Source: Phycisphaerae bacterium
GTDB taxonomy: Bacteria > Planctomycetota > Phycisphaerae > UBA1845
Direction of reading: 5' to 3'
NCBI GenBank assembly: GCA_963666835.2
Contig: CAXXGO010000001.1
Coordinates: 1,536,001-1,600,000 of the forward strand
DNA: 64,000 nt
Position 1 is the first letter of the stretch; each line of letters starts with the position of its first letter. Position numbers and translations under genes: made by a program. Shown here one piece after another: positions 29,481 to 38,032 of this stretch. The notes beneath the pieces are model-generated. The model ran no database searches. It saw only the letters and a list, made by a program, of their open reading frames with translations, and was not told the origin of the DNA.

Positions 29481-29905
29481 GGTGGCCCATGTTCTATTGA
29501 GTTTCCGGAATGACAATGTCGTGGCAGAACCGTGCGGGGTGCGGTTGCCTGGACATGGGGGAACCGACGACGATGCCCGCCGGCGATCGATGGCAGGTCT
29601 CGTGCCTCGACCATGCCCTACAAGATCAGACGGCAGGTCTCGTGCCTCGACCATGCCCTACGAAGAGTGCCAGTCGGGTGGCATGGGTCAACTTGTTGAC
29701 CCGTGGAGTAACAGCGTGTAGACAGGTGGCCCATGTTCTATTGAGTTTCCGGAATGACAATGTCGTGGCAGAACCGTGCGGGGTGCGGTTGCCTGGACAT
29801 GGGGGAACCGACGAAGATGCCCGCTGGCGATCGATGGCAGGTCTCGTGCCTCGACCATGCCCTACAAGATCAGACGGCAGGTCTCGTGCCTCGACCATGC
29901 CCTAC
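29481..29905. repeat. Direct duplication of a ~181-bp unit (29481-29661 and 29725-29905, offset 244)
   Basis: Near-identical copies beginning GGTGGCCCATGTTCTATTGAG and ending in two 40-bp units. Confidence 0.93.
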
Positions 29906-30146
29906 AAGAGCAGATGGCAGGTCTCGTGCCTCGACCATGCCCTACAAGATCAGACGGCAGGTCTCGTGGCTCGACCATGCCCTACAAGATCAGACGGCAG
30001 GTCTCGTGGCTCGACCATGCCCTACAAGATCAGACGGCAGGTCTCGTGGCTCGACCATGCCCTACAAGATCAGATGGCAGGTCTCGTGCCTCGACCATGC
30101 CCTACAAGAGCAGACGGCAGGTCTCGTGGCTTGACCGTGCCCGGCA
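29836..30146 (-). repeat. Tandem array of 40-bp GTAG-type REP-like units (7 full plus 1 degenerate; 2 more at 29592 and 29632)
   Basis: Unit GGCAGGTCTCGTGSCTCGACCATGCCCTACAAGAKCAGAY, period 40; minus strand reads GTAG followed by an imperfect palindrome; no unique spacers. Confidence 0.9.
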
Positions 30147-33460: not shown

Positions 33461-34726
33461 ATGATACGCCTGGAGGTAGCCGTCTTTCTTGCATTTGCGG
33501 TAGCCCTCGGTAAGACCGCGTCCGAGGCGCAGGCACAGAACATATACTGGACGGACAGTGATGGTCGCTCCATTCGCCGCGCTGACCTAGACGGTACGAA
33601 CATTGAGGAACTGGTTACGCGCACGCCGGGGTTTCCAGCGGGAATAGCTCTGGACTTGTCGGCAGGCCGGATGTTTTGGGTCGAGTCGTCCGACGGAGAT
33701 TACTTTGGCGGTCGTGATCCATCGATTCGCCGCGGTCAGCTCGATGGTCTTGGCGTCGCGACGGTGTTCGCAGAGTCGTGGATGTACCCGCGGGACATCA
33801 CCCTCAACGTGAACGAGGGTAAGATGTATTGGAGTAGCGGAGTGTGTCGCGGCTGCTTGTGCAACGGCTTTCCCTCAATCCAGCGCGCTGACCTGGATGG
33901 TTCGGACCATGAGTTCCTCGCCGGGGAGACATCTTGTGCCCCGCGGGGGATTGCTCTCGATCCCTCGGCCGGCAAAATCTACTGGACCGACTGGGGAGGA
34001 TGCGGTATGCTCTTCACCATTCCTCCAACGCTCCAGCGCGCTAACCTGGACGGATCAGACCTCGAGATCCTCATCGACACCGACGTCTTCGACCCGGAGG
34101 CAATTGCTCTCGACTTGAGCGCCGGCAAGATGTACTGGACCGAACTCGCGACGTGGGGCGACGTTCCCGCAAGAATCCGGCGGGCCAATCTGGACGGATC
34201 CGAGATCGAAGACCTGGTGACTTACGGCCTATCCAAGCCCAAAGGGATCGCCCTTGATCTCGCCGCGAACAAGATGTACTGGACCGACTCGGGTACCGAC
34301 ACAATCAGGCGCGCCAATCTTGATGGCTCCGGCATTGAAACCGTGGTCTCCGCCACCTCGGCAGGCGCGAGCCCAACCGGTATTGCCCTCGATCTCACCG
34401 GCGCCTGCTGCCAAGTCAACGGAACGTGCGTCGACATGGACGGCACGGTCTGCGTGAATCAGGGTGGCAACCCCGGCGGGGCCGGTACAGTTTGCGACGG
34501 CGACCAGGACGGCGACGGCTTGGACAGATTCTGCGGCGACGACTGCCCGAACGACCCACACAAAACCTCCCTGGGCATCTGCGGCTGCGGCGTTGACGAC
34601 TCCCTTTTTGCCCCTGAATGCCTGGGTATTCCCACGGTCTCTGTGTGGGGGATGATAGTCTTGACGCTGCTTTTGCTCACCGCCGGGAAGGTCTGCTTCA
34701 CCAAGTACCGGCGCGAAGCTCAGTAG
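33461..34726 (+). CDS. YWTD (LDL-receptor class B) beta-propeller surface protein with Cys-rich linker and IPTL-CTERM
   Basis: Repeated GIALD...KMYWTD...IRRANLDGS; GACC, DDCPNDP; IPTVSVWG plus TM plus basic tail. Confidence 0.9.
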   Translation: MIRLEVAVFLAFAVALGKTASEAQAQNIYWTDSDGRSIRRADLDGTNIEELVTRTPGFPAGIALDLSAGRMFWVESSDGDYFGGRDPSIRRGQLDGLGVATVFAESWMYPRDITLNVNEGKMYWSSGVCRGCLCNGFPSIQRADLDGSDHEFLAGETSCAPRGIALDPSAGKIYWTDWGGCGMLFTIPPTLQRANLDGSDLEILIDTDVFDPEAIALDLSAGKMYWTELATWGDVPARIRRANLDGSEIEDLVTYGLSKPKGIALDLAANKMYWTDSGTDTIRRANLDGSGIETVVSATSAGASPTGIALDLTGACCQVNGTCVDMDGTVCVNQGGNPGGAGTVCDGDQDGDGLDRFCGDDCPNDPHKTSLGICGCGVDDSLFAPECLGIPTVSVWGMIVLTLLLLTAGKVCFTKYRREAQ

Positions 34727-35158
34727 CCTCCGAGGCCTTGGCCAGGGTCCTCGCGGCTTGCCTCCGGACTCCACGGCACCGCCAGGAGCCTCTGAAGCCC
34801 GGTCAGTCTTTCCGTGACTGCGGCGGAAAGAGACGTAACCATGGTACTGCGGTATCGCGACCCGAGCGGCCGAGCACAGTGCTCTGACACGGTGAGCGCT
34901 ACCGTGGTGATGGTCAAGCTGAAGCAGAAAGGTGTCAGGAGGAGTTTCTCGGGAACATTAACGCGAGTGCCGGGCTACGAGAACAGGATGCCTCTCTGTC
35001 AGAAGCGCCGGGGCTCGTCGATAACGCCTCGGTCTGCGGAGCGTTGCGTCGGCATGGCCATTCCCCAAAGCACTGGAAAACCAACCTGGGAAAGTTGCCC
35101 CCCTCGCGCGGAAACGACCCCTTTATCCAGATTCTCTCAATGCGTTATCTGCTATCTT

Positions 35159-35186
35159 CATGGCCACGCAAGCGTGGCGCATGGCA
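35159..35186. repeat. REP-like palindrome forming the 5' exon of the intron
   Basis: CATGGCCACGC-AA-GCGTGGCGCATG hairpin ending CATGGCA. Confidence 0.65.
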
Positions 35187-35187
35187 G

Positions 35188-36096
35188 GAGCAGCCGACAA
35201 GGCTGCGGATCTTATGGGGTGAGAGTCCCCTCGCCGTCAGTTTCCCGGTTCGGACGGCTAGCTTATTCGATGCACGTGTCTGGTAACAGCACGTGTTCTG
35301 CTCGAACGAAAACGCCACGGCTGCCCTGCAGGCTCAGAACTGCAGCGGTGGGAGCGATCGGGGTGGCAAGCAAACTTGGAGGCCTGAACATTAGTGAATG
35401 GCTGCAGCTGCGAAAGTACGCCCGCTCGGGAAATCGCTGGAGCGGATTATTGCGGGAAAGCCGACCCGATTGCCATGCGGGGAAGGCCGACGTCATCGAG
35501 GGAAGAAACGGGAATGTGCACCTCGACGACCCGCCGCGGTAGGGACCCAGGCATCCAAGGAAAGATCTGCAGAGATAACGTCGGGAAGGGCCATCTCCCA
35601 GCAGGGACTGGCGACAACCTGCGAAGACTCGCCGACCAAGGCAACGACCGTAGGCGGCGAGAGGGATTTGGTCCGGCGCATGGGCCCGTATGAGCGATGA
35701 AGGCGGGGTAATGCCCGCTGACGTAGCCCGCGAGGCTGCGACGTGACGGGTAACGCCCGAAGCGTGCAAAGGGGCCCTGGATACTTGGCGGTCCTGGGGC
35801 GCTCCCGGACATTGAGCCGGGATCGAGCGTACCCTTAAAGAGTGGACGAGCGTCGCATGCAAACCACAGCCAAGAGGGGCGTATACGAGCCAGCGTTTGA
35901 GTTTCCTTGGTTGTGGGCAGGCAGTGGCGGGACAAGCCAAGGTCAGAACCGGACTCGGGAAATCCGACCGTCCGGGATCGTAGGGGGGCCTCGGGAAACG
36001 TGGCTCATGGTGGAACTGTGAACCCACTCCGCAACCGAAAGGGCGGATCTGGAAACCCTCCACCTAAAAGCGCGCGCGCCCGAGTTCTATCCCGAC
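35188..36096 (+). mobile_element. ORF-less group II intron (~909 nt)
   Basis: D5-like GAACCGGACTCGGGAAATCCGACCGTCCGGGATC (35946-35979); long D6 ending GTTCTATCCCGAC; D3-like GATGAAGGCGGGGTAATGCCCGC...AAAGGGGCCC; D1 elements GGGTGAGAGTCCC and GAAAGCCGAC...GGGGAAGGC; EBS1 TGCCATG (35471-35477) complementary to exon CATGGCA (35180-35186); no RT ORF. The 5' boundary is 35187 or 35188. Confidence 0.88.
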
Positions 36097-36142
36097 CCCG
36101 CCACCCGTTGCCTTCCTCTATAAGGGGCGGGGAATCCGGTGG

Positions 36143-38032
36143 TTAACCCGTTGCGTCTTTCACCAGCAAATCGTTTATCCGTTCGGCGAAGGCGGTGGGG
36201 TCCTCCAGCTTTGAGCCTTCGGCGATCAGGGCCTGGTCGTAGAAGAGGTGCGCGTATTTCTCGATCCGCGGGTCGGCGGGGTCTTTCTTGTGCAGATCAC
36301 GCACGGCCAGGACGGCTCGGTGCGCGGGGTTCAGTTCAAGCGTCTGCCGGGGACGGTCCGCGGCATCGCTGCGTCCGATTCGCTCCATGATCCGGCTTAT
36401 ATGCACGCCCATGGCGCCTTCGTCGAGGACCAGGCAGGCGGCGCTCTCGTTCATTCTCGTTGACAGGCGGACGTCCTTGACGCTCTCCAGGTGCTTACTC
36501 AGGTCCTTGAGCAGGTCGGCGAATTCGGTCCGGGCTTCGTCCAGCTTCTCCTTCTCGGTCTCGTCGGCGTCCAGCGCGCCTCTGTCCGCGGCCTTGAGCT
36601 TCTTGCCCTTGTATTCGGGCAGGGACGAGATCATGAACTCGTCGAACGGGTCGGTCATCAGAAGAACGTCGAATCCTCGGCTCCTGAACGCCTCGACGTG
36701 CGGGGAACGGGCGAGAAGGTCGCGGTCTTCGCCGACGAGGTAGAATATCTCTTCCTGCCCGTCGGGCATGGCCTCCACGTATTTGTCGAGGGTCGTGTAT
36801 TTGCCGGACTCAGTGGCGACGGACTCGAAGAGGGTGAGTCCGGCGATCCGCTCGCGGTTGGACCAGTCGTGAGTGACGCCTTCCCGGAGAATGCTCCCCA
36901 ACTCCTCGTGAAACTCGACGTAGGCGTCGTAGTCCTCGGTCCGCAGTTCCTCCAACGCCGAGAGGACCCGCTTGACGATGTTCTTCTGGATCTTGCCCAG
37001 AAGCGGGTTCTGTTGGAGCATCTCGCGGGATACGTTCAGGGGCAGGTCGGTGCAGTCCACCACGCCGCGCACGAACCGCAGGTAGCCGGGCAGAAGCGCC
37101 TCGCAATGGTCCGTGATGAACACCCGCCGGACGTAAAGGTGCAGTTGCGACTTCGGCTCCCCCCAAGCTAAGTCCAGCGGCTTGTGCTTGGGAATGTATA
37201 CGAGCACGCGGAACTCCGTAGCGCCCTCGGCGACGTAGTGGATCGTCTTGACCGGGTCGTGAAAGTCGCGCGAGATGTGTTTGTAGAACTCCTTGTGCTC
37301 TTCCTCGGTTACCTCGGACTTGGGGCGGAGCCAGATGGCCTTGCGGGTGTTGAGCGTCTCCTCCGTGACGGTTTTCACCCCTTCGTCGTCTTCCTTTTCG
37401 ACGTCCATGACTACGGGGTGCTCGATGAAGTCGGAGAACTTGGTCACCACGCGGCGCAGACGCATCGGCTGCAGGTATTCGCGGGCATCTTCGCGCAGGT
37501 GCAGGGTGACGTCCGTTCCACGGGTCTCTTTCTCGACCGATTCGATCGTATACTCGCCCTGGCCGTCGGATTCCCATCTGACTCCGGCGTCCTTCGCCCC
37601 GCCCGGCCGCGATAGCACCGTAACGCGATCGGCGACGATGAACGAAGCGTAGAAGCCGACCCCGAACTGTCCGATCAGGTCCGGGCGGTTCTTCACGTCG
37701 GCTTGGGCGAGGTTTTGCAGAAACGCCTGTGTGCCCGACTTGGCGATAGTGCCCAACTCGTCGACGATGGACTCACGGGACATGCCCGTTCCGTTGTCAG
37801 AGACGGTGAGCGTACCGGCGGTCTCGTCGACCGAGATACGGATCTTCCAATCGGAATCACCTTCCAGGAGATCCTCGTTTTCAAGCGAGTTGAACCGGAC
37901 GCGATCGATGGCGTCACACCCGTTACTGATCAGCTCCCTAAGGAACACATCCTTGTCGGAGTAGAGTGAGTGGGTGATGATGTCGAGGAGCTGTTTCAGT
38001 TCCGTCTTGAATTCGAGCGTTTCTGCGCTCAT
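36143..38032 (-). CDS. htpG: Molecular chaperone HtpG (Hsp90)
   Basis: SLYSDKDVFLRELISN, DNGTGM, LGTIAKSGT, IGQFGVGFY, DLPLNVSRE. Confidence 0.97.
   Translation of the reverse strand: MSAETLEFKTELKQLLDIITHSLYSDKDVFLRELISNGCDAIDRVRFNSLENEDLLEGDSDWKIRISVDETAGTLTVSDNGTGMSRESIVDELGTIAKSGTQAFLQNLAQADVKNRPDLIGQFGVGFYASFIVADRVTVLSRPGGAKDAGVRWESDGQGEYTIESVEKETRGTDVTLHLREDAREYLQPMRLRRVVTKFSDFIEHPVVMDVEKEDDEGVKTVTEETLNTRKAIWLRPKSEVTEEEHKEFYKHISRDFHDPVKTIHYVAEGATEFRVLVYIPKHKPLDLAWGEPKSQLHLYVRRVFITDHCEALLPGYLRFVRGVVDCTDLPLNVSREMLQQNPLLGKIQKNIVKRVLSALEELRTEDYDAYVEFHEELGSILREGVTHDWSNRERIAGLTLFESVATESGKYTTLDKYVEAMPDGQEEIFYLVGEDRDLLARSPHVEAFRSRGFDVLLMTDPFDEFMISSLPEYKGKKLKAADRGALDADETEKEKLDEARTEFADLLKDLSKHLESVKDVRLSTRMNESAACLVLDEGAMGVHISRIMERIGRSDAADRPRQTLELNPAHRAVLAVRDLHKKDPADPRIEKYAHLFYDQALIAEGSKLEDPTAFAERINDLLVKDATG

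Follow-up and report, generated by a model that had tools for sequence, protein, structure and literature searches.

Introduction

RmInt1 of Sinorhizobium meliloti reportedly homes into the multicopy ISRm2011-2 in a sequence-specific manner and with a preference for the lagging-strand template. The intron described here resembles RmInt1 in its multicopy target, in its sequence-specific homing and, as we infer, in a lagging-template preference, but RmInt1 moves autonomously and targets an insertion sequence, not a short hairpin repeat. Like TeI3 of Thermosynechococcus elongatus, the element is an ORF-less, multicopy intron of the IIB type with good pairing between the guide sequences EBS1-3 and their targets IBS1-3 (EBS2 being putative in our element), and the accessible text on TeI3 provides the precedent for a mobilisation of ORF-less introns in trans (PMC2882425). 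Some TeI3 copies are nested in other introns and mobilised in trans, as the same text describes; members of the family of our element nest likewise, and mobilisation in trans is proposed for them. TeI3 arose by ORF deletion in a close relative within the same genome and retains ORF remnants (PMC2882425, accessible text), unlike our element, whose family crosses phyla, has no relative bearing a reverse transcriptase (RT) among the matches listed, and is characterized by an AAC catalytic triad and a GGAGC start. While TeI3 and TeI4 form a closely related pair, the ribozymes of the candidate helpers considered below resemble the element in domains 5 and 6 (D5/D6) only.

C.te.I1 of Clostridium tetani is ORF-less as well and resides, like our element, in a genome without a related intron protein, but it is class B-like, has no EBS2, plays a role in splicing rather than spread, and in the accessible text its authors found no close relatives (PMC3919590). 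With group IIC introns, the element shares the use of a hairpin that is abundant between genes and offers a safe target many times over; for these introns, the accessible parts of PMC4424553 and PMC7923331 describe an EBS1 of 3-4 bp, no EBS2, a CGC triad and recognition of structure, whereas our element has a 7-nt EBS1, a likely EBS2 and a IIB fold. The IIB layout with EBS1, EBS3 and a likely EBS2 and a weak match to the Rfam model D1-D4-4 are shared with bacterial class E/F introns, and the long, structured D6 is as described for IIF in the accessible text of PMC3753933 and PMC3552965. According to the same accessible text, however, class E/F introns encode an RT, and the class rests on RT phylogeny, which is inapplicable to an RT-less element.

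A review of 2015 distinguishes, in its accessible text, three types of targets, i.e. homing sites, terminators and attC sites, and expects that few bacterial introns lacking an ORF have escaped notice, except for those with a domain V unlike the known ones (PMC4424553). The family of our element fits this exception. It is widespread and gene-less, and its altered catalytic hairpin escapes the Rfam D5 model and hence pipelines built on that model, on which survey pipelines rely according to the accessible text of PMC8919778 and PMC12350094. The accessible literature contained no description of the family or of homing into REP sequences; supplements, subscription journals or the intron database may list the family.

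The element and its copies

The window, i.e. the whole 64,000-nt stretch of the Phycisphaerae genome that was analysed, carries on its + strand an ORF-less IIB-like group II intron of 910 nt (35187..36096, GGAGC...AC), the boundaries of which are given by the comparison of filled and empty sites. The initial annotation had described a scaffold of about 909 nt and expected an optional G between CATGGCA and CCCG in the empty site. The six-domain intron stood up to analysis, but its length had to be corrected: unoccupied repeats read CATGGCA/CCCG with no additional G, so the intron starts with GGAGC, and the first G belongs to it. The sequence strings quoted in that annotation were all recovered (the hairpin from 35159, CATGGCA at 35180-35186, TGCCATG at 35471-35477 and CGCCACG at 35313-35319), and there is indeed no RT ORF within 35187-36096, with a domain 4 of 158 nt (about 160 nt had been estimated). 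The insertion is exact and lacks a target-site duplication.

By BLAST, the intron was detected in the genome as four full-length copies, together with two short fragments of its 3' part, and a family profile search of the genome gave nothing beyond these. The intron probably has spread recently; the full copies vary at 6 of 910 positions, and their flanks differ. In the best-matching sequencing run, which may be the source sample, the read depth was 21-23 over the intron and 4-6 over the flanks, and this roughly 4-5-fold excess argues that the multiple copies are not an assembly artefact. Beyond this genome, a full-length copy was absent from 60 related genomes searched, a near-full-length relative occurred in 1 of 400 genomes of the phylum, and there were no intron matches in viral contigs and phages and three partial ones in plasmids. 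Both fragments are truncated at the 5' side and comprise part of D6 (contig C1, 375980-376086 and 304331-304411). One of them lies inside the repeat, with a 7-base repeat on either side and microhomology at the join, as expected for abortive cDNA synthesis or a later deletion.

Upstream of the intron and on the same strand lies a gene for a 421-aa protein without NCBIfam hit (33461..34726, +), which is a possible source of read-through transcription, and a search for sigma-70-like promoters in 34700-36250 found none. On the other side, the convergent htpG gene (36143..38032, - strand) is uninterrupted. One RNA run contained, as contigs, only a relative with about 95% identity to the intron. 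Among the contigs of the RNA runs there was no spliced junction, a result that, being drawn from contigs, does not argue against splicing.

The target repeat and its occupancy

The 5' exon is a hairpin repeat (35159..35186, +), and the 3' exon (36097..36100, +), as defined by filled versus empty sites, consists of the IBS3 base C and the rest of the repeat tail. Allowing up to 6 mismatches, the 27-mer of the palindrome had 68 matches in the genome, most of them empty, versus 1 in a block-shuffled genome; the repeat thus is multicopy, as had been supposed, and the expected common 5' flank was found for three of the four full copies, which sit at CATGGCA/CCCG of the palindrome, while the fourth lies outside any such repeat. 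These 68 matches belong to a group of 238 sites that have their tail in common. An empty repeat copy folds at -12.3 kcal/mol (DNA parameters). Short matches to the palindrome occurred in 4 of the 36 genomes searched from the same family, and a relative with about 96% identity to the intron, detected in a sequencing run of a different study, lies behind this type of repeat as well (one 106-nt contig).

The repeat is short, multicopy and outside genes (verified for the window copy, roughly checked for the others). REP sequences, in the accessible text of PMC3733652, are defined by a GTAG or CGTC tag and by flanking a RAYT gene. The palindrome has neither tag, its opposite strand ending with GGGTG, and none of eight tested Y1 transposase-like loci (nine matches in the genome) lies within 5.7 kb of this repeat subfamily; for these reasons we name it "REP-like".

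The abundance of the repeat and the presence of these Y1 transposase-like matches could speak for a spread as DNA, either through gene conversion among the repeats or with the help of a tyrosine transposase that mobilises them, and an active ribozyme would then be unnecessary. Yet the sequences beyond the repeat and the repeat variants themselves differ from copy to copy, one copy is outside repeats, the tested Y1 loci are not near this repeat subfamily, and the covariation of guides and flanks across the family, described below, needs an RNA-guided insertion. We therefore regard a spread as DNA as highly improbable.

A perfect IBS1 followed by C or by the intron was found at 44 of the 68 matches, and overall occupancy is low, with 4 of these 44 sites filled. 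The filled sites are unevenly distributed: 3 of 6 matching sites on the + strand (one of them filled by a truncated copy) versus 1 of 38 on the - strand, a post hoc comparison with a Fisher p of 0.006, or 0.045 if full copies only are counted. As the GC skew of contig C1 is positive in 39 of 44 bins, + likely is the lagging-strand template there; over the first 1 Mb of contig C6, the skew is ambiguous.

Guide sequences and recognition

EBS1 (35471..35477, +) is the sole reverse complement of IBS1 (35180..35186, +; 7/7 complementary) in the intron. The assignment of TGCCATG/CATGGCA as EBS1/IBS1 in the initial annotation is confirmed by covariation with the flanks across the family: in 31 dereplicated relatives, each EBS1 column pairs with the corresponding exon position from -1 to -7 in 30-31 cases (Watson-Crick or G-U), with Watson-Crick counts about 2-3.5-fold above expectation. 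In a second, separately picked set, at least five of six pairs are formed in 24 of 29 members, with misaligned rows counted as misses. EBS3 (G35542, +) forms its pair with position +1 of the 3' exon, being Watson-Crick in 28 of 31 relatives versus 10.8 expected and in 27 of 29 members of the second set. Nearby, the four copies carry either A or G at base 35545, in contrast to the T of most family members, and a mismatch near EBS3 results.

The signal for EBS2 is weaker and its register varies: columns 35417-35422 covary with exon positions -10 to -16, the best column being paired in 25 of 31 relatives versus 11.8 expected, and the putative EBS2 (35417..35421, +) would form four Watson-Crick pairs and one G-U pair with a putative IBS2 (35172..35176, +). 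CGCCACG (35313-35319), considered as an alternative EBS2, was rejected, as 35314-35318 are a strand of internal helix 8, which is paired in 100% of cells; its match to CGTGGCG, already suspected to be fortuitous, hence is due to chance. In runs X17 and X8, relatives with about 95% identity over 35222-35606 have altered EBS1 and EBS2 bases, and judged by its sequence the changed EBS1 would fit a CATGCCA tail, the commoner form among related repeats.

Is it the sequence or the hairpin that is recognised? Hairpin targets recur in the family, including repeats, attC-like sites and D5 hairpins, and the repeat might accordingly be recognised as a structure, in the way group IIC introns recognise terminators and attC sites. 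However, the element has a full 7-nt EBS1 plus a likely EBS2 and an EBS3, and folding would probably hide IBS2 and most of IBS1, which are located within the hairpin arm. Moreover, the flank of the fourth copy, which is no repeat, fits all three guides, with an IBS1 that includes one wobble, a perfect IBS2 (5/5 Watson-Crick, one base nearer to the junction) and an IBS3. Because of this copy, recognition appears to be based on sequence and not on the hairpin, and we consider structure recognition unlikely. The homing into repeats as such is ordinary homing at an abundant target.

Ribozyme fold and deviating core

The six-domain fold that had been proposed is supported by covariation in a 183-pair model, in which 94.4% of the cells are paired versus 76.9% in shuffled and 34-46% in slid controls, with two-sided changes at 130 of the 183 pairs. 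These counts are inflated by the relatedness of the sequences, and the structure was drawn with the same alignment in view. Two helices score poorly where the alignment is loose (68% and 66%). As an unrestricted pair scan yields many composition-driven false pairs, stacked helices alone were retained; a minimum free energy fold of the whole element (z -3.8) failed to give the covarying structure and was set aside.

Domain 1 (35194..35584, +) contains the alpha (35242-47/35509-14) and beta (35354-58/35433-37) pairings, which correspond to helices 5 and 10 and are paired in 98% and 97% of cells. At 35190-35206, a short hairpin could form in competition with the basal helix of D1, and it shows partial covariation across the family. 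Domain 2 (35588..35674, +) is followed by the J2/3 linker (35675..35681, +) with gamma (G35678), domain 3 (35682..35777, +) with covarying helices 22-26, and domain 4 (35784..35941, +) with a conserved structure. D5 (35946..35979, +) is a 34-nt hairpin in which an additional base faces the AAC triad (35947-49) and which has a CC bulge, and the long D6 (35983..36093, +; helices 32-33) has the bulged A36089 as eighth base from the 3' end, which is unpaired within a covarying stem.

The core deviates from the textbook at several points. All 29 members that had been selected through their 5' end carry AAC as the triad, with neither AGC nor CGC among them. In the J2/3 linker, gamma covaries with the last base of the intron (A in four members that end with T), and it is mostly followed by C-A in the family, where G-A is the usual form. 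The natural AAC triad with a matching J2/3 change represents a test case for the catalytic triplex. While the 3' AC fits the AY boundary, the 5' GGAGC is off the GUGYG consensus and apparently one base longer. At gathering thresholds, no Rfam model matched in the window; at E<=10, weak D1 matches but no D5 appeared, so that the suggested Rfam check was positive for D1-D4-4 only as a weak match (30 bits, cut-off 49), and RF00029, the D5 model, does not detect the D5. IIC traits (short EBS1, lack of EBS2, CGC triad, requirement for an upstream stem-loop) were not found. By its layout, the element is best described as a IIB-like group II intron, for which splicing is predicted, and since its triad and 5' end deviate from the textbook forms, it is classified most suitably as a variant lineage.

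A five-pair contact between the loops of D2 (35608-35612) and D4 (35889-35893) covaries, being formed in 97% of cells in the first set and fully paired in 27 of 29 members of the second. This loop-loop pairing is a candidate tertiary kissing contact, and to our knowledge it is not among the named group II interactions.

A widespread family apparently without its own RT

Family members were collected in two ways. The first set, based on an exact D5 35-mer in GTDB genomes, comprises at least 119 loci and includes, among the matches listed, Bacillota, Actinomycetota, Planctomycetota, Proteobacteria and others. Of 129 listed D5 matches (some loci overlap), 65 have a 5' start in reach, 63 of them at less than 1 kb, whereas the two long members (2.46 and 2.49 kb) hold ORFs that by eye are transposase-like and not RTs. 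Dereplication of 64 sequences gave the 31 aligned relatives, the closest of which, among the matches listed, is 75% identical to the window intron. The second set, picked by the 5' end alone in metagenomes, has at least 120 matches.

Among the matches listed, 92 of 96 distinct D5 loci have an ORF-less D4 directly upstream; none of the 96 has an RT C-terminus there, and one carries a mid-RT fragment. Of the 45 listed second-set loci with at least 950 nt downstream, 34 extend to D6 and contain no ORF, the others being truncated or unmatched; none of the 45, which match a near-exact motif, has an RT in D4. One locus (L214) has a short RT C-terminal remnant following its D2 and is a chimera in which a family 5' half is joined to an RT intron's 3' end. 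The near-exact-motif matches listed include no autonomous member.

These observations bear on the question whether the element simply arose by deletion from a closely related autonomous intron, which the assembly lacks or which was lost recently. Such an origin is the usual pattern for bacterial ORF-less introns in the accessible text of PMC4424553 and PMC2882425, and the genome is only 92% complete, but the profile search revealed only the four copies and two fragments, no RT-bearing member occurs at the listed D5 or 5'-end loci, and the D4 structure is conserved across phyla. A deletion derivative thus seems to be a poor explanation, about as unlikely as structure recognition.

The flanks of the 31 representatives, assigned by eye from known motifs, place 23 in other group II introns, three in hairpin repeats and one in an attC-like site, with four unassigned. 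On this sequence evidence, repeat homing appears to be the exception in the family, whose usual targets are other group II introns. Besides our element, two Bacillota members sit in multicopy hairpin repeats. Gracilibacillus massiliensis has 13 family copies with 98-100% identity; for the repeat that flanks them there are 356 candidate sites, and among the 30 examined out of 40 listed, 5 are occupied and 25 empty; in Virgibacillus profundi, 1 is filled and 11 are empty of 12 examined (26 repeat matches). By eye, the three repeats look unrelated in sequence, and more than one origin of repeat homing is therefore likely. Of the 29 second-set members, 6 are inserted at CGTTAGG/C, which agrees with the attC consensus quoted in the accessible text of PMC7923331; such top-strand insertions are L206, L216, L232, L243, L244, L276 and L038. 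Family copies also occur in tandem, head-to-tail (L076/L077), and two copies lie within one host D5 (L040).

Candidate helpers and proposed mechanism

An RT-encoding intron elsewhere in the genome had been anticipated. Of the 14 RT matches in the genome, 12 belong to near-identical copies of one intron, a further one to a different intron and the last to a long fusion. RT introns are thus present, 13 in number, but none of them is closely related to the element: their RNAs resemble it in D5/D6 only, and a closely related RT-bearing intron in the same genome, as in case of TeI3, was not found in this assembly. The likeliest helper is the 1.9-kb RT intron present in 12 copies or the single intron with a 472-aa RT. 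Both proteins pass the NCBIfam group II RT cut-off, look endonuclease-free from their length and the families hit, and presumably are class E-like. The 12 copies (L001-L012, contigs C1, C6 and C7) lie downstream of a hairpin repeat, 11 of them on the + strand.

Among 33 carrier genomes, 21 encode an RT similar to that of the 12-copy intron (E<=1e-80), compared with 13 of 150 and 14 of 100 controls; 12 of the 33 carriers have no such RT, and 2 no match even at 1e-10, many of these assemblies being incomplete or having split copies. The co-occurrence is suggestive but confounded by the nesting of family members in those introns and by genome kinship.

We consider it probable that the element is an ORF-less IIB-like intron with guides matching the REP-like repeat, which splices, reverse-splices and is copied by the RT of an unrelated intron. 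The intron RNA would be transcribed by read-through and splice out as a lariat, with A36089 as the presumed branch point. Guided by EBS1-3, it would then reverse-splice into single-stranded repeat DNA at the replication fork, presumably in the lagging-strand template, and the RT for copying the inserted RNA to DNA would be provided by an unrelated intron of the same cell. Against this explanation count the AAC triad and the GGAGC start, which are off the textbook core, the low occupancy of the matching sites and the unrelatedness of the helper ribozymes.

Alternatively, splicing and integration could be free of maturase, with any available RT serving only as polymerase. Protein-free integration by a group II ribozyme has reportedly been observed (PMC11754743), there is no related helper ribozyme in the genome, and the extra D2-D4 pairing could stabilise the fold. 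The enrichment of one RT clade in carriers, on the other hand, fits a preferred partner, and the conserved D4 loops may resemble a protein-binding site. We thus see this alternative as rather unlikely, and prefer the borrowed RT of an unrelated intron. The family offers a candidate D2-D4 contact and a proposed case of mobilisation by an unrelated RT, and the genome is a ready test set with one intron, 44 matching sites and two candidate helpers.

A more far-reaching reading is possible, which we hold only tentatively: the family might be an old, cross-phylum, protein-less lineage, a bacterial counterpart of SINEs. Its core would have been rewired (AAC triad, C in J2/3, longer 5' end), a structured D4, locked by D2, would have replaced the ORF and would capture unrelated RTs, and the guides would have been repeatedly retargeted to abundant sites, i.e. 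other introns, attC-like sites and REP-like repeats.

Some further loci deserve mention. The window contains a tandem 40-bp array at 29585-30142 that consists of a GTAG-tagged repeat (9 units matched), the core of which has 668 matches in the genome. An ORF-deleted intron lies behind a GTAG-type repeat (L173, contig C6 near 259959), an internally deleted copy of it is found near 234412 on the same contig (L172), and a lone D5/D6 is located on contig C5 near 79022 (L171). The long RT fusion is a 958-aa frame (L174, C6:1807500-1812500), whose parts flanking the RT domain resemble, by eye, Cas6 and Cas1.
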